64,000 bases of DNA from assembly GCF_003334765.1 (NCBI RefSeq), contig NZ_QOWT01000003.1. One strand, given 5' to 3'. Under the pieces are notes generated by a model. That model was not told the DNA's origin. It did no database searches and was given only the letters and a program-made list of their open reading frames with translations. The stretch is from Escherichia coli. GTDB lineage: Bacteria > Pseudomonadota > Gammaproteobacteria > Enterobacterales > Enterobacteriaceae. Positions 1 to 46,843 of this stretch are shown piece by piece; position 1 is the first letter of the stretch, and the number at the start of each line of letters is the position of its first letter. Position numbers and translations under genes: made by a program.

Positions 1-332
1 ATATCCCCCATAACCCTCTCCTTAGCTTATACAGATATCATTGAGTGACCGGTGTTGAGAAATCCGGTGGTTTAGGGGGATAGAGCAACAATCGCACCAC
101 TCTTGCCAGGTTTGGCGGGAAATATAAAAAAATGTGAGGCGGCTCGAAACTTAAGGGCTTTTTGTGAATGAACTCACAGGTGCTAAATGAGAATTAAAAT
201 CACTCCTGAAAATTATTATTGCCAGCCCATTTATCAATTTTTCTCTTTTCTCAAAATCAGTGATTCCTTATCATTATGATAATGAGTGCCGGAAGGATTA
301 AATATTTGAACGCAATCGTTTAACTACGTTTT

Positions 333-911
333 CTAAATTTCAGTATACCTTTCCTTCGCTGTAATAAAGTCGTCCGGAGTATCAATATCTAAAATTATTT
401 CTGCATTTTCTATTTCGACGGAATAATGATCTCCCATAAGGAGTGCCTGACGCATATTGGTGACATTGGGTCGTTGGATTGCCTGCATCAGGCATGGTTT
501 TGACACTAAAATCGGATGGCCGGGGATGCCATTATGGAGTGGCAGTATTGCGCCATCATTTCGTAACGACCAGATTTTTCTAAAAATATCGATGGTGAGG
601 GTTGGCATGTCACCGTGGGTGAGAAAACAATGTTCTGTTTGCACTTCGGGTACTGCGGCCTTGACGGATGTTAGTAAACCCTGCGCATAATCTGGGTTGT
701 GAATAATAGTGATATTGCTCTGGTTCGCATAACGTTCGTGCAGTTCATTACCACGATAGCCGGTGACTAAAATAATTCGGCTACAAAACTGCAACGCATT
801 TTTGATACTTGTATCAAGAATTGTTCCCTGTTCCCAGGGTAACATCATTTTCCATTGCCCCATTCTTGATGATAATCCGGCAGCGGTAATTATACAGTCG
901 ATGGCTGACAT
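333..911 (-). CDS. mocA: molybdenum cofactor cytidylyltransferase (MocA/YgfJ)
   Basis: 192-aa ORF with N-terminal nucleotidyltransferase glycine-rich motif (AAGLSSRMG); length and sequence match recalled E. coli YgfJ/MocA; divergent from yqeC. Confidence 0.9.
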   Translation of the reverse strand: MSAIDCIITAAGLSSRMGQWKMMLPWEQGTILDTSIKNALQFCSRIILVTGYRGNELHERYANQSNITIIHNPDYAQGLLTSVKAAVPEVQTEHCFLTHGDMPTLTIDIFRKIWSLRNDGAILPLHNGIPGHPILVSKPCLMQAIQRPNVTNMRQALLMGDHYSVEIENAEIILDIDTPDDFITAKERYTEI

Positions 912-1013
912 AGTGGTTCCATTATTTATAGGGGCTAATAACGCCTGATAATTGCGTTACTTCCTGATGGATTAAGTTGGGGATAATTTATCCCAGAGAG
1001 GTCATAAAGACTC

Positions 1014-1784
1014 GTGAAAAGTATAGTTGACCCATCGGCATTAGTCATTGATTTAGGTGCGCAGAAACGTCCCACTGTGATTTCTGTTGTTGGTGCTGGG
1101 GGGAAAACCAGCTTGCTTTTTTGGCTGGCAGAACTGCTCCAGGCTAGCGGCAGGCGTGTGTTAATCACGACGACGACACATATGTTTATGCCAACGTCTC
1201 ACTGGCCCGTGGTTTTCTGTCGTGATCCCGCCATGCTTCCTCATGCGTCTCTTACATCCCCCATTTCATTTTGTTTTCACAGCTGGAAAGCGAACCAGGG
1301 AAAAGTGCAGGGATTTACGCCAGAAGCGATTGATGCACTGGTGCAACGACCAGAGTGTGACGTAATTCTCATTGAAGCAGATGGCTCGCGTGGAATGCCG
1401 TTAAAAGCGCCTGATGAGCACGAACCTTGCATACCCAAAAGCAGTTGCTGCGTGATTGCTGTGATGGGAGGACATACTTTGGGCGCGAAAGTGAGCACAG
1501 AAAATGTCCATCGCTGGTCGCAGTTTGCTGATATTACCGGGTTAACACCTGATGCAACCTTGCAACTGAGCGATCTCGTTGCGCTGGTTCGCCACCCTCA
1601 GGGGGCGTTTAAAAACGTACCGCAAGGTTGTCGGCGAGTCTGGTTCATTAACCGTTTTTCTCAATGTGAGAATGCGATTGCACAAAGCGAGCTCCTTCAA
1701 CCGCTGCAACAACACGACGTAGAGGCAATCTGGCTGGGCGATATACAAGAACATCCTGCAATCGCGCGCAGATTTGTGAATTAG
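1014..1784 (+). CDS. yqeC: selenium-dependent molybdenum hydroxylase system protein YqeC (P-loop protein)
   Basis: 256-aa ORF with Walker A-like motif VVGAGGKTS; synteny with yqeB/mocA as in E. coli K-12. Confidence 0.88.
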   Translation: MKSIVDPSALVIDLGAQKRPTVISVVGAGGKTSLLFWLAELLQASGRRVLITTTTHMFMPTSHWPVVFCRDPAMLPHASLTSPISFCFHSWKANQGKVQGFTPEAIDALVQRPECDVILIEADGSRGMPLKAPDEHEPCIPKSSCCVIAVMGGHTLGAKVSTENVHRWSQFADITGLTPDATLQLSDLVALVRHPQGAFKNVPQGCRRVWFINRFSQCENAIAQSELLQPLQQHDVEAIWLGDIQEHPAIARRFVN

Positions 1785-1831
1785 CGGCCCGGGTATTCCG
1801 GGTTACTGAAAGGATATCCATTGAGGTTGGT

Positions 1832-3457
1832 ATGAATATTTTCACAGAGGCTGCAAAACTCGAAGAGCAAAATTGTCCGTTTGCTATGGCGCAAATTGTT
1901 GATAGCCGAGGCTCGACTCCCCGCCATTCTGCACAAATGTTAGTGCGCGCCGATGGTTCTATCGTCGGTACAATTGGTGGCGGAATGGTTGAGCGGAAGG
2001 TGATTGAAGAGTCGCTTCAGGCATTGCAGGAACGTAAGCCGCGATTATTCCATGGACGTATGGCTCGTAACGGTGCGGATGCTGTCGGGTCAGATTGTGG
2101 AGGTGCAATGTCAGTATTTATCAGCGTCCATGGTATGCGTCCACGTCTGGTGTTGATTGGCGCGGGGCATGTCAACCGGGCGATAGCCCAGAGTGCGGCG
2201 CTATTAGGATTTGATATTGCCGTTGCTGATATTTATCGCGAAAGCCTCAATCCTGAACTATTCCCACCATCAACCACGCTTCTCCATGCTGAGTCGTTTG
2301 GTGCGGCAGTGGAAGCACTGGATATTCGCCCTGATAATTTTGTCCTGATTGCCACGAATAATCAGGATCGTGAAGCCCTCGACAAACTCATTGAACAGCC
2401 CATTGCATGGTTGGGGTTGCTGGCAAGTCGTCGCAAGGTTCAGCTTTTCCTGCGTCAATTGCGTGAGAAAGGCGTGGCTGAAGAACATATTGCCCGTTTA
2501 CATGCGCCCGTTGGTTACAACATAGGTGCGGAAACGCCGCAGGAGATCGCCATCAGCGTGCTGGCAGAAATATTACAGGTGAAAAATAACGCGCCGGGTG
2601 GGCTGATGATGAAACCTTCTCATCCTTCCGGACACCAGCTGGTGGTGATTCGCGGTGCGGGAGATATCGCCAGTGGTGTGGCGCTACGTCTGTATCATGC
2701 GGGTTTTAAAGTGATCATGCTGGAAGTGGAAAAACCGACAGTGATTCGTTGTACCGTGGCGTTTGCCCAGGCCGTGTTCGATGGCGAAATGACGGTCGAA
2801 GGCGTCACTGCTCGCCTGGCAACCAGCTCTGCGGAAGCGATGAAACTTACCGAACGCGGATTCATTCCTGTGATGGTAGATCCCGCCTGTTCATTGCTTG
2901 ATGAACTGAAACCGCTTTGCGTGGTGGACGCTATTCTGGCGAAACAGAATTTGGGAACGCGGGCAGATATGGCACCAGTAACAATCGCGCTTGGGCCGGG
3001 CTTTACTGCTGGGAAGGATTGTCATGCGGTAATTGAAACAAATCGCGGGCACTGGCTCGGTCAGGTGATTTACTCTGGTTGTGCGCAGGAGAATACCGGT
3101 GTTCCTGGCAATATTATGGGGCATACCACCCGACGGGTGATCCGTGCTCCTGCTGCAGGCATTATGCGATCCAACGTGAAATTAGGCGATCTGGTGAAAG
3201 AGGGCGATGTGATTGCCTGGATTGGTGAGCATGAAATTAAAGCACCGTTGACGGGGATGGTGCGTGGCTTGTTGAACGACGGCCTGGCAGTGGTTGGTGG
3301 TTTTAAAATTGGTGATATCGATCCTCGTGGTGAAACCGCTGATTTCACCAGCGTTTCTGATAAAGCCCGGGCGATTGGCGGCGGCGTACTTGAGGCGTTA
3401 ATGATGTTGATGCATCAGGGCGTGAAAGCGACAAAAGAAGTGCTGGAAGTGGCTTAA
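1832..3457 (+). CDS. yqeB: XdhC/CoxI-family molybdenum hydroxylase accessory protein YqeB
   Basis: 541-aa ORF, length and synteny match K-12 YqeB; tandem XdhC-like domains inferred from sequence pattern. Confidence 0.88.
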   Translation: MNIFTEAAKLEEQNCPFAMAQIVDSRGSTPRHSAQMLVRADGSIVGTIGGGMVERKVIEESLQALQERKPRLFHGRMARNGADAVGSDCGGAMSVFISVHGMRPRLVLIGAGHVNRAIAQSAALLGFDIAVADIYRESLNPELFPPSTTLLHAESFGAAVEALDIRPDNFVLIATNNQDREALDKLIEQPIAWLGLLASRRKVQLFLRQLREKGVAEEHIARLHAPVGYNIGAETPQEIAISVLAEILQVKNNAPGGLMMKPSHPSGHQLVVIRGAGDIASGVALRLYHAGFKVIMLEVEKPTVIRCTVAFAQAVFDGEMTVEGVTARLATSSAEAMKLTERGFIPVMVDPACSLLDELKPLCVVDAILAKQNLGTRADMAPVTIALGPGFTAGKDCHAVIETNRGHWLGQVIYSGCAQENTGVPGNIMGHTTRRVIRAPAAGIMRSNVKLGDLVKEGDVIAWIGEHEIKAPLTGMVRGLLNDGLAVVGGFKIGDIDPRGETADFTSVSDKARAIGGGVLEALMMLMHQGVKATKEVLEVA

Positions 3458-3464
3458 ATGAAAA

Positions 3465-3492
3465 TGGCCGGATGGTATTACCCACCCGGCCT
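3465..3492. repeat. 28-bp GC-rich hairpin repeat, copy 1 (tggccggatggtattacccacccggcct)
   Basis: Exact 28-bp direct repeat of the copy at 3645..3672; internal imperfect inverted repeat ggccggatgg/ccacccggcc; lies just after the yqeB stop. Confidence 0.7.
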
Positions 3493-3516
3493 GAGACTGA
3501 TGACAAACGCCAAATT

Positions 3517-3617
3517 GCCTGATGCGCTACGCTTATCAGGCCTACAAGTGCATTGCAATCTATTGAATTTGCTATGTTTTGTAGGACGGATAAGGCGCTC
3601 GCGCCGCATCCGGCATC
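3517..3617. repeat. REP/BIME-like element (two inverted REP palindromic units)
   Basis: gcctgatgcgctacgcttatcaggcctac and gtaggacggataaggcgctcgcgccgcatccggcatc resemble E. coli REP units in opposite orientations, between convergent yqeB and yqeA. Confidence 0.65.
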
Positions 3618-3644
3618 AACAAAGCGCACTTACTTGACAATCTT

Positions 3645-3672
3645 TGGCCGGATGGTATTACCCACCCGGCCT
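3645..3672. repeat. 28-bp GC-rich hairpin repeat, copy 2
   Basis: Identical to 3465..3492; lies just after the yqeA stop (minus strand). Confidence 0.7.
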
Positions 3673-3677
3673 TTAAA

Positions 3678-4610
3678 TTACTGACAAATCACCGTTCCTG
3701 TTTTGCCTTCAATCCCTTCTTTCGCTTTGCTCAATACGGTAATCAGTGCTTCACGACCTGCGCGAGAGCGAGCAAACGAGGCGGCAGCTTCCACTTTAGG
3801 CAGCATAGAACCTTTCGCAAAATGACCTTCTTCGATAAAGCGTTCAGCATCACTTAATGACAGGCGATCGAGCCACTGTTCATTCTCTTTACCGAAGTTA
3901 ATGGCCACTTTTTCTACCGCAGTCAGAATGATCAGCATATCGGCATCAATCATTTCTGCTAAACGGGCGCTGGCCCAGTCTTTATCGATAACCGCGCTGG
4001 CACCACGCAGATGGTTACCTTCACGAATAACAGGGATACCACCACCGCCAACGGTGATCACCACCTGACCTGCATCTACCAGAGCTTTAACCGTTTCTTT
4101 TTCAATGATATCAACCGGTTTTGGCGAGGCAACAACACGGCGATAGCCGCGACCAGCATCTTCTTTCAGAGTGTAACCCTGTTTTGTCAGTTGCTCTGCT
4201 TCTTGCTCGGTAAAGAACGAACCGATCGGCTTGGTCGGGTTGAGGAATGCCGGATCGTTAGCGTCGACTTCGACCTGAGTAACCAGCGTTGCTACAGGTT
4301 TATTAATGCCCCGAGAAAGCAGTTCTTCTCTTAAAGCGTTTTGTAGATCGTAACCAATATAACCCTGGCTTAATGCAACACAGACAGACATCGGCAGCAT
4401 TGGCGAGTGCGCTTCAGTTTTTGCGGCAGCTTCAAAGGCCTGGTTAATCATGCCCACCTGCGGCCCGTTACCATGAGTGACGATAACTTCATGTCCCTGG
4501 GCAATTAAATCAACAATTGCCTGAGAAGTAATTTTTACCGCTTTCATTTGCCCGGCCAGGTCATCGCCCAGCGCATTCCCGCCCAGGGCGAGAACAATTT
4601 TCTTACTCAT
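3678..4610 (-). CDS. yqeA: carbamate kinase-like protein YqeA
   Basis: 310-aa ORF; carbamate kinase/amino acid kinase family pattern (KIVLALGGNAL N-terminus); last gene of the ygeW-yqeA cluster. Confidence 0.9.
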   Translation of the reverse strand: MSKKIVLALGGNALGDDLAGQMKAVKITSQAIVDLIAQGHEVIVTHGNGPQVGMINQAFEAAAKTEAHSPMLPMSVCVALSQGYIGYDLQNALREELLSRGINKPVATLVTQVEVDANDPAFLNPTKPIGSFFTEQEAEQLTKQGYTLKEDAGRGYRRVVASPKPVDIIEKETVKALVDAGQVVITVGGGGIPVIREGNHLRGASAVIDKDWASARLAEMIDADMLIILTAVEKVAINFGKENEQWLDRLSLSDAERFIEEGHFAKGSMLPKVEAAASFARSRAGREALITVLSKAKEGIEGKTGTVICQ

Positions 4611-4657
4611 TTTTCCTCACTCATCATTCTTGATTGTGTATAGATCCCTGGCAGTGG

Positions 4658-6043
4658 TTAGAGCACGGGAGGGACAAACGGTTTGCGTCGCAGGAAACGA
4701 CCTCGCCCGGCTTTGCCTGTAAAGGTGCCGTCACAGAAAATCGTTTCACCACGGGATAAGGTTCTGACAATCGCGCCCTGACAGGTAAAACCCTCCCATG
4801 GCGAGTAGTCGGCGTTGTCGTGGAGATGGCGATGCTGAATTTGTTGGCTCTGACGTGGGTCGATAATCACCACGTCGCCGTCGGAACCGGGCGCTAATAA
4901 TCCTTTTTGCGGCCACAGGCCAAACAACCTGGCGGGCATTGCGCTGGTTAATTCAACAAAGCGTTCCGGTGTTATACGTCCCGTCATCACGCCACTGGAA
5001 AACAGTAACTGCATGCGGTTTTCCACACCGGGTAAGCCATTTGGGCAGCGACTGAAATCGCCTTTAGAAATTTGCAGGCGTTGAGCCATCGAGAAGGTGC
5101 AGTGATCGGTTGCCACCACGTCAATCGCACCATCGCTGATGCCACACCACAGTTTGTCCTGCTCGCGTACGTTACGCAGCGGTGGGCTAAGAATGAACTT
5201 CATGCCATCTTCTGTATCGTAACTGCGTTCGTCCAACAGGAGATATTGTGGGCAGGTTTCAACCCAGACTGGCTGGTGATTCGCACGGGCAAGACGCAGA
5301 TAATCCAGACCTAAGCCGTTAGACAGGTGCACGATATAGAGCGGGGCGTTACCGGCAATTTGTGCCAGGTTAATCATGCGGGCGATGGCTTCCGCTTCGC
5401 ATTCCAGAGGGCGACTCAAGGCATGATAGCGCGGCGCGGTTAACCCTGCGGCGATAAATTCCGCCCGCTTGCTGGCGATAGCCGCATCATTTTCCGGGTG
5501 CACGGTGGTCAGCGCGCCGGATTCATGCAAGCGGCGTAATGCCTGCAAAACCTCGTCATCGTTGAGTTTGTATTGATAGGTTAAATAGAGTTTAAAACTG
5601 CTCAGTCCTTCCTCGACCATCATCGGGATTTCGTCGAGGATTGCGTGATTAATGTGCTGGATCACACCGTGAAAGCTGTAATCGATGACCGCTTTATGGG
5701 CGGCATAACCACGATAAACCTCCAGTTGATGGCGTAACCGACAGCCGTTTGGGCCAAATCCCATATGGTCAATAATGGTTGTTGTACCGCCACACGCAGC
5801 TGCGCGGGTACCGGTAAAAAAATCATCACAACTGCGCGCGATGCCGACATCAATATTGAAATGCGTATGGACATCCACGCCGCCAGGGAAAACGTAACAG
5901 CCAGTGGCATCAATTTCTTCATACGGGAGCTGCGGCGAAATATTGTTGCCCAACTGGCGAACAATCCCGCTTTCAATCAGCAAATCCTGTTTGGCTTGTC
6001 CATCTGCGTTAACGACAGTGCCGTTTTTGATCAATACGCGCAT
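4658..6043 (-). CDS. hyuA: D-phenylhydantoinase / dihydropyrimidinase-family amidohydrolase HyuA (YgeZ)
   Basis: ORF track gives 4658..6055 from a TTG; an ATG at 6043 preceded by GGAG gives the 461-aa protein starting MRVLIKNG; metal-binding HxH motif (DVHTH) present. Confidence 0.9.
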   Translation of the reverse strand: MRVLIKNGTVVNADGQAKQDLLIESGIVRQLGNNISPQLPYEEIDATGCYVFPGGVDVHTHFNIDVGIARSCDDFFTGTRAAACGGTTTIIDHMGFGPNGCRLRHQLEVYRGYAAHKAVIDYSFHGVIQHINHAILDEIPMMVEEGLSSFKLYLTYQYKLNDDEVLQALRRLHESGALTTVHPENDAAIASKRAEFIAAGLTAPRYHALSRPLECEAEAIARMINLAQIAGNAPLYIVHLSNGLGLDYLRLARANHQPVWVETCPQYLLLDERSYDTEDGMKFILSPPLRNVREQDKLWCGISDGAIDVVATDHCTFSMAQRLQISKGDFSRCPNGLPGVENRMQLLFSSGVMTGRITPERFVELTSAMPARLFGLWPQKGLLAPGSDGDVVIIDPRQSQQIQHRHLHDNADYSPWEGFTCQGAIVRTLSRGETIFCDGTFTGKAGRGRFLRRKPFVPPVL

Positions 6044-6095
6044 AGCAAACTCCAAAAACCCTCCGGCGAACCGGAGGGGAATAAGTGAAGAGTAA

Positions 6096-7307
6096 TTACT
6101 CTGTTGCCAGCCAGCTTAACGGGATTGCAGCGTACATCGCGGCACAGGTCACCAGGTGAGATTTCCAGGTTTTTTCGTTAGGTGCATGCGCTTCAGGTTC
6201 TTTACCCGGGCCAAAGCCGATCACCGGAATGCCGTGACGGCCCATGATAGATACGCCGTTAGTTGAGAAGGTCCACTTATCAACAACCGGCGCTTTGCCA
6301 AACAGCCCTTCGTAGGCATTCACCAGTGCTTTAACGGTGAAGTGATCTTCTTCCACTTTCCAGGTCGGGAAGTAGCATTCGGTTGGGTAAACCAGGCCAG
6401 TCCAGGACGGACGGTCGTAGTTGTACATAGAAACAACCGCGTTAGCTTTCTGTACTGCAGGCAGGGCGCGGATTTCGTCCAGCGCGCCTTCCCAGGTTTC
6501 GCCCCAGGTCAGACGACGGTCGATTGAAACTGCGCAGCTGTCTGCTACAGCGCAACGGCTTGGGGATGTGAAGAAGATTTCAGAAACGGTGAGGGTGCCT
6601 TTGCCGAGGAATTCGTCATAACCCAGACGTTGGGAGAGTTCTTGTAATTCGCCAAGAATCGGACCCATTTTGAAAATGGCGTTATCACCGCGTTCTGGTG
6701 CAGAACCGTGGCAGCTAACACCCTGAACATCAATACGAATTTCCATACGACCGCGCTGACCACGGTATACCTGGCAGTCGGTTGGTTCGGTACTGACCAC
6801 AAATTCCGGGCGAATGCCGGATTGTTCAATAATGTACTGCCAGCACAGACCGTCGCAGTCTTCTTCCTGCACCGTACCGGTAACCAGCAGGGTATATTCA
6901 TCTTCCAGACCGAGGTCTTTAATGATTTTACCGGCATAAACCATAGAGGCCATGCCACCTTCCTGGTCGGAAGTACCGCGACCACCAATCAGTTCATCAG
7001 TTTCCATGCCTTCGTACGGATCGAAGTCCCAGTTTTTGATGTTGCCAATGCCGACGGTATCGATATGAGCGTCCATTGCCACCAGACGCGGGCCGTGGCC
7101 GATATAACCGAGAACGTTGCCCATCGGGTCGATTTCAACTTTATCGAAGCCGACTTTTTCCATCTCTTCTTTAATACGATGTACTACGCGTTTCTCGTCG
7201 CAGCTTTCACTGGGAATAGCAACCATGTCGCGCAGGAAGCGAGTCATATCCGCCTGGTAATCTTTTGCTTTTTCAAGAATCAGTTTGAATGGAATATTCT
7301 TAGCCAT
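6096..7307 (-). CDS. ygeY: M20-family peptidase/amidohydrolase YgeY
   Basis: 403-aa ORF; synteny and length match K-12 YgeY. Confidence 0.88.
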
Positions 7308-17013: not shown

Positions 17014-17087
17014 GCGGGCGTAGTTCAATGGTAGAACGAGAGCTTCCCAAGCTCTATACGAGGGTTCGATTCCCTTCGCCCGCTCCA
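17014..17087 (+). tRNA. glyU: tRNA-Gly (anticodon CCC)
   Basis: 74-nt sequence GCGGGCGTAGTTCAATGGTAGAACGAGAGCTTCCCAAGCTC...CGCCCGCTCCA with 7-bp acceptor stem, CCC anticodon in loop CUUCCCAAG, T-loop GGTTCGATTCC, encoded CCA end. Confidence 0.95.
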
Positions 17088-46559: not shown

Positions 46560-46641
46560 CCCAGAGGTATTGATAGGTGAAGTCAACTTCGGGTTGAGCA
46601 CATGAATTACACCAGCCTGCGCAGATGCGCAGGTTTTTTTT
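46560..46641 (+). ncRNA. omrB: small regulatory RNA OmrB (RygB)
   Basis: 82-nt unit from CCCAGAGGTATTGAT to the terminator hairpin cctgcgcagatgcgcagg plus T8; shares 5' and 3' ends with the adjacent copy; galR-aas intergenic location. Confidence 0.88.
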
Positions 46642-46755: not shown

Positions 46756-46843
46756 CCCAGAGGTATTGATTGGTGAGATTATTCGGTACGCTCTTCGTAC
46801 CCTGTCTCTTGCACCAACCTGCGCGGATGCGCAGGTTTTTTTT
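46756..46843 (+). ncRNA. omrA: small regulatory RNA OmrA (RygA)
   Basis: 88-nt unit with the same conserved 5' end and terminator hairpin cctgcgcggatgcgcagg plus T8; tandem with omrB. Confidence 0.88.

Follow-up and report, generated by a model that had tools for sequence, protein, structure and literature searches.

Why does one and the same GC-rich hairpin stand on either side of a REP doublet between the convergent Escherichia coli genes yqeB and yqeA? In the window (the whole 64-kb stretch of DNA that was analysed), the 28-mer TGGCCGGATGGTATTACCCACCCGGCCT is present in exactly two copies, both on the + strand and with 0 mismatches, and a search of the 64 kb that allowed up to 3 mismatches found no further copy; shuffles of the window put the chance expectation for such matches at 0. 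The original prediction was right that the starts of the two copies lie 180 bp apart, that each copy adjoins the stop of one of the two convergent genes, and that two oppositely oriented REP palindromes lie between them (Table 1). On both sides the 28-mers abut the intervening element, with 28/28 identity and 0 nt between repeat and element.

A hairpin pair around a BIME-1 element

That the two copies are stable hairpins was confirmed by fold prediction. As RNA, each 28-mer folds at -16.7 kcal/mol on the + strand and at -22.6 kcal/mol on the - strand, with z scores of -3.5 to -6.6; the - strand hairpin has 10 contiguous pairs and the + strand stem contains an A.C mismatch. As single-stranded DNA, the 28-mer reaches -8.8 and -10.7 kcal/mol, leaving one unpaired base at each end. 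A comparison with Rfam found no known RNA family at the hairpin/BIME region; the matches in the window are OmrA, OmrB and tRNA, all of them elsewhere. The ORF that we call yqeA carries the RefSeq annotation arcC carbamate kinase in matching genomes.

Table 1. Features of the yqeB-yqeA spacer and its neighbouring genes, in coordinates of the window.
Feature	Position	Strand	Description
yqeB	1832..3457	+	ORF of 541 aa; annotated yqeB in matching genomes; TAA stop 3455-3457
U-rich tail after copy 1	3456..3465	-	A-UUUUCAUUU in - strand RNA; overlaps the yqeB stop codon
Hairpin copy 1	3465..3492	+	Left duplicated target; stem 3466-3491; 7 nt past the yqeB stop
BIME-1 (RIB/RIP type, REP doublet), inserted DNA	3493..3644	+	152 bp; gone from sampled shorter alleles
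Left terminal motif	3493..3510	+	GAGACTGATGACAAACGC; imperfect terminal inverted repeat with the right end
Y-type palindromic unit (REP), CTAC end	3516..3545	+	TGCCTGATGCGCTACGCTTATCAGGCCTAC; inverted repeat with the Z unit
L linker	3546..3580	+	35 bp; IHF-like site inside, 3556-3568, - strand ATTCAATAGATTG
Z-type palindromic unit (REP), GTAG start	3581..3615	+	GTAGGACGGATAAGGCGCTCGCGCCGCATCCGGCA
Right terminal motif	3624..3644	+	GCGCACTTACTTGACAATCTT; agrees with the family consensus CGCACTTTGTCAGCAATCTG
Hairpin copy 2	3645..3672	+	Right duplicated target; exact repeat; ends 5 nt before the yqeA stop
yqeA/arcC-like carbamate kinase	3678..4610	-	ORF of 310 aa; stop 3678-3680; convergent to yqeB

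Judged by its sequence, the DNA between the hairpins is a complete member of the BIME-1 family (also named RIB or RIP, and in E. coli REP doublet or REPIN). BIME-1 has been defined as one y and one z1 REP with a long conserved L linker that carries an IHF site (PMC3333891), and described as an extragenic element of ~150 bp at gene 3' ends whose presence varies among isolates (PMC3333891; PMC1187871). Here the Y and Z REPs are oppositely oriented, with complementary arms and the tags CTAC and GTAG. The putative IHF site ATTCAATAGATTG has one mismatch to WATCAANNNNTTR, and the linker core TTGAATTT is conserved across the 120 stretches of the scan described below. Similarity to dispersed copies extends over the full length, outer flanking motifs included; identity to the BIME-1 at uspB-pitA is 88.9% over 151 nt, which is the whole element, with no extension beyond it. 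Single-stranded DNA of the 152-bp element folds with Y paired back on Z1 (-27.2 kcal/mol, z -3.1). No other REP element was found in the 64-kb window, and BLAST matches of the insert at 47.4, 62.3 and 22.3 kb proved to be chance similarity inside coding sequence. Two features were not found in the published descriptions of BIME-1 that could be searched: imperfect terminal inverted repeats, and a duplicated terminator hairpin that brackets full-length copies.

Filled and empty alleles at yqeB-yqeA

The hairpins had been suggested to form part of a composite repeat, and a genome-wide search for the 28-mer had been proposed as a test for a repeat family. Among 5,426 complete E. coli genomes the 28-mer was found at 5,324 places in 3,883 genomes, with a maximum of 2 per genome, and no copy was found in these genomes away from yqeB-yqeA or on plasmids. 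A dispersed repeat family is ruled out by this distribution, and because there are at most two copies per genome, at one locus, the 28-mer is duplicated target DNA and not part of the mobile element. The hairpin-BIME-hairpin arrangement is present in 1,649 of the 5,426 genomes, and alleles devoid of BIME carry one hairpin copy. Shorter alleles (25 among the 40 matches listed) all span 371 bp as against 551 bp, and the difference of 180 bp is the sum of the 152 bp of BIME-1 and the 28 bp of one hairpin. In the four empty alleles that were aligned (O157, ST131 MS8345, WEM25 and MRSN346595) there is one hairpin and no BIME, and the spacer consists of TAAATGAAAA-TGGCCGGATGGTATTACCCACCCGGCCT-TTAAATTA and nothing else, so that both the duplication and the empty site are directly visible. 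An empty site with exactly one repeat copy, the mark of a target-site duplication, is found at yqeB-yqeA and also at two further loci, uspB-pitA and narP-ccmH. The 28-mers are thus very probably a target-site duplication of a single terminator hairpin, made when BIME-1 inserted.

Filled alleles correspond to a close haplotype group, 1,652 records being at least 99% identical to the window vs 1,649 filled genomes; K-12 and BL21 are both filled. O157, ST131 and further haplotypes, 1-2.4% diverged from the window, supply the empty alleles that were sampled. This haplotype distribution, which is the sole basis for the polarity of insertion at yqeB-yqeA, fits a single insertion in one lineage followed by rare losses. 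Over 6,343 flanking bases, the empty allele of WEM25 differs from the window at 1 position, the filled allele of Z142-6 at 35 and the O157 allele at 68; the best account of WEM25 is that the insertion was lost recently and precisely, by way of its 28-bp repeats. Taken alone, yqeB-yqeA is nothing out of the ordinary: a BIME-1 insertion whose presence varies among strains, flanked by two poorly characterised genes.

Comparison of the two alleles also indicates what happened to the terminator. In the empty allele, 5 nt separate the yqeA stop from the single hairpin, after which the - strand continues with AUUUUCAUUU. A terminator scan scores this hairpin as intrinsic on that strand; it looks like the intrinsic terminator of yqeA and is possibly weakly bidirectional. 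In the filled allele, the scan passes copy 1 on the - strand (stem 3491..3466, 10 pairs, tail ATTTTCATTT), and the tail after copy 1 is the one that also follows the single hairpin of the empty allele. Copy 2 fails the scan on the + strand, where the mismatched stem is followed by the tail TTTAAATT. The gene-proximal copies are without a U-tract, the one on the yqeB side being followed by GAGACUG (+; the far copy on this strand by UUUAAAUU) and the one on the yqeA side by AAAGAUUG (-). Each hairpin copy has retained one of the two tracts after insertion and, for each gene, the T-rich tract adjoins the copy that is farther away. The claim of the original prediction that the hairpins are not followed by T-runs therefore applies to the gene-proximal copies but not to the far ones, which carry ATTTTCATTT and TTTAAATT. 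Intrinsic terminators, including bidirectional ones between convergent genes, likewise have a GC-rich stem-loop with an A-tract before it and a T-tract after it, past the stop codons; the gene-proximal hairpins differ from them, after insertion, in the missing U-tracts.

As the two alleles read, BIME-1 insertion left the U-tract of yqeA on copy 1, now 180 nt farther from yqeA. Each transcript would then meet a hairpin devoid of a U-tract first, largely read through the REP doublet and end at the far copy, and both 3' UTRs would be ~180 nt longer and mutually complementary over ~220 nt. According to published work, REPs located in 3' UTRs stabilise the mRNA upstream of them and attenuate transcription (PMC3333891), and a secondary effect of the hairpin pair on 3' ends is possible.

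Flanking repeats at other BIME-1 loci

The uspB-pitA and narP-ccmH loci, which were encountered by chance, have the same organisation, each with its own local hairpin. The first is filled in 1,940 genomes, with empty alleles 173 bp shorter, and the second in 1,505 genomes, with empty alleles 176 bp shorter; the empties at each hold one terminator of A-tract, hairpin and T-tract. To gauge how general the pattern is, one genome per species was scanned for the Y-REP plus linker pattern, giving 120 stretches from E. albertii, E. whittamii, other Escherichia lineages and Pseudocitrobacter. Copies with both end motifs are uniform in size (51/55 measure 150-152 bp), and the 53 elements that had both terminal motifs and enough flank were reduced to 45 non-orthologous loci. 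For each element the 45 nt on the left were compared with the 45 nt on the right, with mismatched left/right pairs as control.

Flanking direct repeats whose local-alignment score exceeds 18, the control's 99th percentile, were found at 32 of the 45 loci, with scores of up to 56. A strict test for ungapped, abutting repeats gave a score of at least 10 at 17/45 loci vs 0/1,980 control pairs, and of at least 5 at 22/45 loci vs 1.6% of control pairs. The repeats at the 32 loci are 13-39 bp long with a median of 23, seven of them are exact, and their median fold is -13 kcal/mol. Their sequence is specific to the locus at each BIME-1 locus scored, as is to be expected where independent insertions carry repeats of their own targets. 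The flanks show directly that the repeats end at the hairpin feet: there are 0-1 unpaired nt on the 5' side in 28/32 cases and 0-2 unpaired nt on the 3' side in 28/32, and the DNA around the duplicated hairpins is A-rich before the left copy and T-rich after the right copy.

Other REP clusters at the same loci served as a specificity control, which needed strict criteria since loose ones were dominated by chance 11-mer matches. Flanking repeats were present at 1/29 of these clusters, that one being a variant BIME-1 tandem, and none were found at the remaining 28 non-BIME-1 clusters of these loci. The barA-gudD and gldA-yijF sites of SCPM-O-B-8794, a divergent genome labelled 'E. coli', were tried as filled/empty pairs and set aside, their flanks being only 80-93% identical; both sites are occupied in E. 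coli proper. Within this sample, the rule that BIME-1 duplicates a whole hairpin is well supported statistically and specific to BIME-1.

The rule has exceptions. At 13 of the 45 full-length copies the long duplication is absent; four loci without it have exact abutting repeats of 5-7 bp, and a strong hairpin stands against one end of the element at 9/13. The fixed duplication length that is classically expected of a DDE transposase is not seen, as repeat length is either 4-7 bp or 13-39 bp and follows the size of the hairpin. Duplication length is bimodal, comprising either a few bases or a whole stem-loop, and duplication of the whole hairpin is the main outcome of BIME-1 insertion, not the sole one.

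Could insertion instead produce a random stagger, anywhere between 4 and 40 bp, from which selection retains the cases with an intact terminator hairpin on both sides, so that integration would not have to be directed by structure? Repeat lengths do vary widely, short repeats of 4-7 bp exist, and insertions that destroy a terminator could well be counter-selected. We nevertheless consider such a filter improbable, given that both boundaries lie 0-2 nt from the hairpin feet in 28/32 cases and that the repeats are either 4-7 bp or a whole hairpin, with no intermediates that end inside loops. A random stagger also predicts many overshoots by several nt, and one was seen (L079, 36-39 bp, with 19 unpaired nt).

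The original prediction suggested that the hairpins may be 3' stabilisers or part of a composite repeat. In the functional reading built on this, the two hairpins and the REPs form a composite element, as paired 3' stabilisers or as a dispersed composite repeat, that is kept for the protection of the yqeB and yqeA mRNAs. Both copies fold stably 5-7 nt past stop codons, REPs have the stabilising and attenuating effects reported for them (PMC3333891), and two exact copies are retained in 1,441 genomes. However, the 28-mer is confined to one locus at no more than two copies per genome, and in most genomes that have yqeB-yqeA a single hairpin without BIME suffices. Around other BIME-1 copies stand different hairpins, each specific to its locus, which makes the hairpins a property of the targets rather than of the element, and at older insertions the two copies have diverged to identities of 74-96%, which argues against selection on the pair. 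As an account of origin the composite element is largely refuted and very unlikely, and the footprint of an insertion, a target-site duplication, explains the pair better than a designed set of stabilisers and best overall. Least credible of all is that the filled state is ancestral, the single-hairpin alleles all being deletions between repeats already present, and that these repeats arose by tandem duplication on the spot, independently of any movement of BIME. Precise loss does occur, as in WEM25, and E. coli and E. albertii seem to have an orthologous BIME-1 at uspB-pitA though most E. coli are empty there, but filled alleles of yqeB-yqeA occur only within one group of close haplotypes, the sampled empties come from the diverged haplotypes given above, and a duplication unrelated to the element cannot account for locus-specific repeats that recur at at least 32 independent BIME-1 copies and always abut the ends.

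Element ends, a candidate route of integration, and loss

The 22 copies with sharp ends give the end consensus 5'-GAGACTGATGACAAACGCAA ... CGCACTTTGTCAGCAATCTG-3', in which the outer 15 nt of the left end form an inverted repeat with the right end at 12 positions. Terminal inverted repeats, empty sites and duplication of the target together give BIME-1 the formal marks of a small non-autonomous transposon. The element end CTGATGA presumably resembles the end of IS10. A C^T dinucleotide lies 1-2 nt inside both BIME-1 termini. TnpA-REP binds REPs, and in vitro it cuts BIME DNA in single-stranded form at C^T, a dinucleotide that it needs for cleavage, and joins it again, on either strand (PMC3333891); TnpA-REP/RAYT is a candidate for the enzyme, and the only one in the literature. 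Its relatives, the Y1 transposases of IS200/IS605 type, make no target duplication (PMC3333891). We considered whether TnpA-REP might cut the target at C^T too, but the boundaries read A|A/G and T|T, with no CT. A plain copy of the IS200/IS605 pathway is therefore unfit, since the target has no C^T and the relatives make no duplication.

The ancestral yqeB-yqeA spacer was very probably 40 bp long, with one GC-rich hairpin between AAAA and TTTAAATT; the 152-bp BIME-1 integrated at the hairpin foot, and the whole stem-loop together with 1 nt on each side was duplicated. BIME-1 usually inserts in this way, with a terminator-type hairpin that serves as target and is duplicated from foot to foot. 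It is quite possible, if short of probable, that the integration of BIME-1 (the REPIN of E. coli) at intrinsic-terminator hairpins is directed by structure, with the two strands joined at the equivalent foot and the hairpin duplicated whatever its length. In the strand-transfer geometry that we infer, the element would be linked to each strand at the corresponding 5' foot of the palindrome; the target being palindromic, the offset between the two joins would equal the length of the palindrome, and the single-stranded hairpin arms or gaps would then be filled in. Equivalently, the element would integrate across the base of a cruciform extruded from the target. The short duplications of 4-7 bp may arise by the same reaction on unextruded DNA beside the hairpin foot. 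In a replication variant, the nascent strand on which the hairpin has just been copied would be joined to the element, both would fold back, and the hairpin would be copied again. Two complete single-strand insertions, one per strand, were rejected by reasoning: the heteroduplex would segregate without a duplication, so a step of gap fill-in or re-copying is needed.

Several known systems share part of this behaviour. BIME-1 resembles MITEs in being short and non-coding and in its terminal inverted repeats, target repeats, single-copy empty site and capacity to fold back (PMC3184786). The duplication made by MITEs, however, is short, fixed and set by a DDE transposase, whereas that of BIME-1 is 4-39 bp and set by the secondary structure of the target, and the candidate enzyme of BIME-1 is a Y1/HUH protein whose relatives make none. 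REPs resemble the subterminal hairpins of IS200/IS605, the family to which TnpA-REP (RAYT) is akin, but IS200/IS605 elements have neither terminal inverted repeats nor a target duplication and BIME-1 has both; the missing duplication in these relatives is one reason why REPs resisted acceptance as transposons. Group IIC introns favour terminator stem-loops at gene ends. So does the pneumococcal SPRITE repeat (PMC3184786). Unlike the target of BIME-1, the hairpin is not known to be duplicated by either. REP dimers of other phyla have been described as 'inserted within' palindromes (Di Nocera et al. 2013), a geometry in which palindrome halves flank the dimer and which differs from duplication of the whole hairpin.

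No description of a hairpin or a target duplication at BIME-1 ends was found in the searchable open literature, which covers the main RAYT, REPIN and BIME papers and reviews but not the key papers of the 1990s, and the whole-hairpin rule is apparently undescribed so far. How REPs spread is still unclear and 'remains to be elucidated' according to a 2021 review (PMC8266576; likewise PMC3333891). REP/BIME sequences account for a substantial part of the intergenic DNA of E. coli, and it is the general duplication rule, not the yqeB-yqeA locus, that is of interest, as it bears on how REP elements move. A duplication of hairpin length is a clear signature by which insertions and empty sites can be called across genomes. 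It constrains the mechanism, which would have to join strands at both feet of a stem-loop and then fill in the gaps, and it makes the terminator hairpin a defined target for a transposition assay. In annotation, identical 'terminator' pairs around a REP doublet are insertion scars, and since the gene-proximal copy is without a U-tract, the 3' ends predicted at such loci may be wrong. Structure-directed integration, if true, would be the first sequence footprint of REP transposition and would account for the location of REPs at gene 3' ends. Each insertion would then turn a terminator into two half-terminators around a REP doublet, and the long repeats would render it reversible and amplifiable.

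Precise excision of Tn10 and Tn5 occurs by slippage between flanking direct repeats and is stimulated by inverted repeats. BIME-1 is alike in being a fold-back element whose flanking direct repeats allow exact loss with restoration of the target, as in WEM25, but its repeats are 13-39 bp as against 9 bp and are themselves hairpins. Bachellier et al. reportedly described 'excisions of a whole BIME-1' in 1997. Such long flanking repeats permit either precise loss of the element or its tandem amplification. At uspB-pitA, the elements of E. coli and E. albertii have locus-specific linker variants in common; this insertion may predate the split of the two species, and the many empty alleles of E. 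coli may reflect loss or introgression. At one locus of Escherichia sp. E1V33 the order is hairpin-BIME-hairpin-BIME-hairpin and both elements share rare variants, which is the product expected from unequal exchange between the hairpin repeats.

Possible loss, exchange and amplification of BIME-1

The yqeB-yqeA site is empty in E. coli WEM25 (L132, NZ_CP061530.1), whose flanks, compared over window positions 300-6850, differ from those of the filled window allele at 1 of 6,343 bases; the same comparison between the window and one filled strain gave 35 differences in the flanking bases. Judged from these alignments, the empty site of WEM25 appears to reflect a precise and recent loss, in which the BIME went together with one hairpin copy. 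At the uspB-pitA locus, where roughly two thirds of the E. coli genomes have no insertion, linker variants specific to the locus are common to the BIME-1 elements of E. coli (L007, 370-600) and Escherichia albertii (L026). The sequences would fit either an old insertion followed by many precise losses or exchange between lineages.

Escherichia sp. E1V33 (L102, 86-495) carries a tandem array of the form hairpin-BIME-1-hairpin-BIME-1-hairpin, in which one 30-bp hairpin is present in three identical copies and the rare variants TTGAATTAGCA are common to both BIME-1 elements. This arrangement looks like an amplification that would have arisen through unequal exchange between duplicated hairpins.

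Duplicated hairpins, short repeats and stop codons

Comparison of two loci with duplicated hairpins (L006, 405-615, and L007, 370-600) with genomic sequences L128-L131 indicated that differences acquired after duplication lie chiefly in the loops. The right hairpin copy at uspB-pitA has lost TAA from its loop; at narP-ccmH the left copy differs in the loop and upper stem, and the other copy is still identical to the hairpin of the empty site. At four further junctions (L036, L077, L008 and L056) BIME-1 lacks a whole-hairpin duplication and is adjoined at both ends by exact 5-7 bp repeats, which is why the length of the duplication looks bimodal. The short repeat in L077 corresponds to the 3' arm of a hairpin, and only on the left side is that hairpin present in full.

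The hairpins in the window begin 7 nt past the stop codon of yqeB and 5 nt past that of yqeA (3458-3466 and 3671-3677), and the empty allele has the same two spacings. Liang, Rudd and Deutscher (2015) reportedly found that REP hairpins lying at such a short distance from stop codons interfere with translation termination.

Unexpected matches and other features

Exact matches to the BIME-1 pattern were also found on short contigs (L033, L047 and L115-L119) of assemblies labelled Bacteroides MAG, Collinsella MAG, Desulfosporosinus, Methylobacterium and Alkalicoccobacillus, which are probably contaminated with enterobacterial DNA.

Coordinates of the E. albertii element and of RNA genes in the window
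Feature	Location	Strand	Support
E. albertii uspB-pitA BIME-1	L026, reverse-complement coordinates 4941-5091	-	
OmrA/OmrB-family sRNA genes (two, adjacent)	window 46560-46641, 46756-46843	+	Rfam, 86 and 97 bits
tRNA-Gly(CCC) gene	window 17014-17087	+	

The OmrA/OmrB-family and tRNA genes bear no relation to the BIME-1/hairpin finding. An AT-rich coding sequence at about 22250-22450 of the window (+ strand) seems to encode an NPTH motif (ccaaccctactcacattgca), judged by eye from the nucleotides; because of this apparent motif, the sequence suggests a candidate FlhB/YscU-type export-switch protein of type III secretion.
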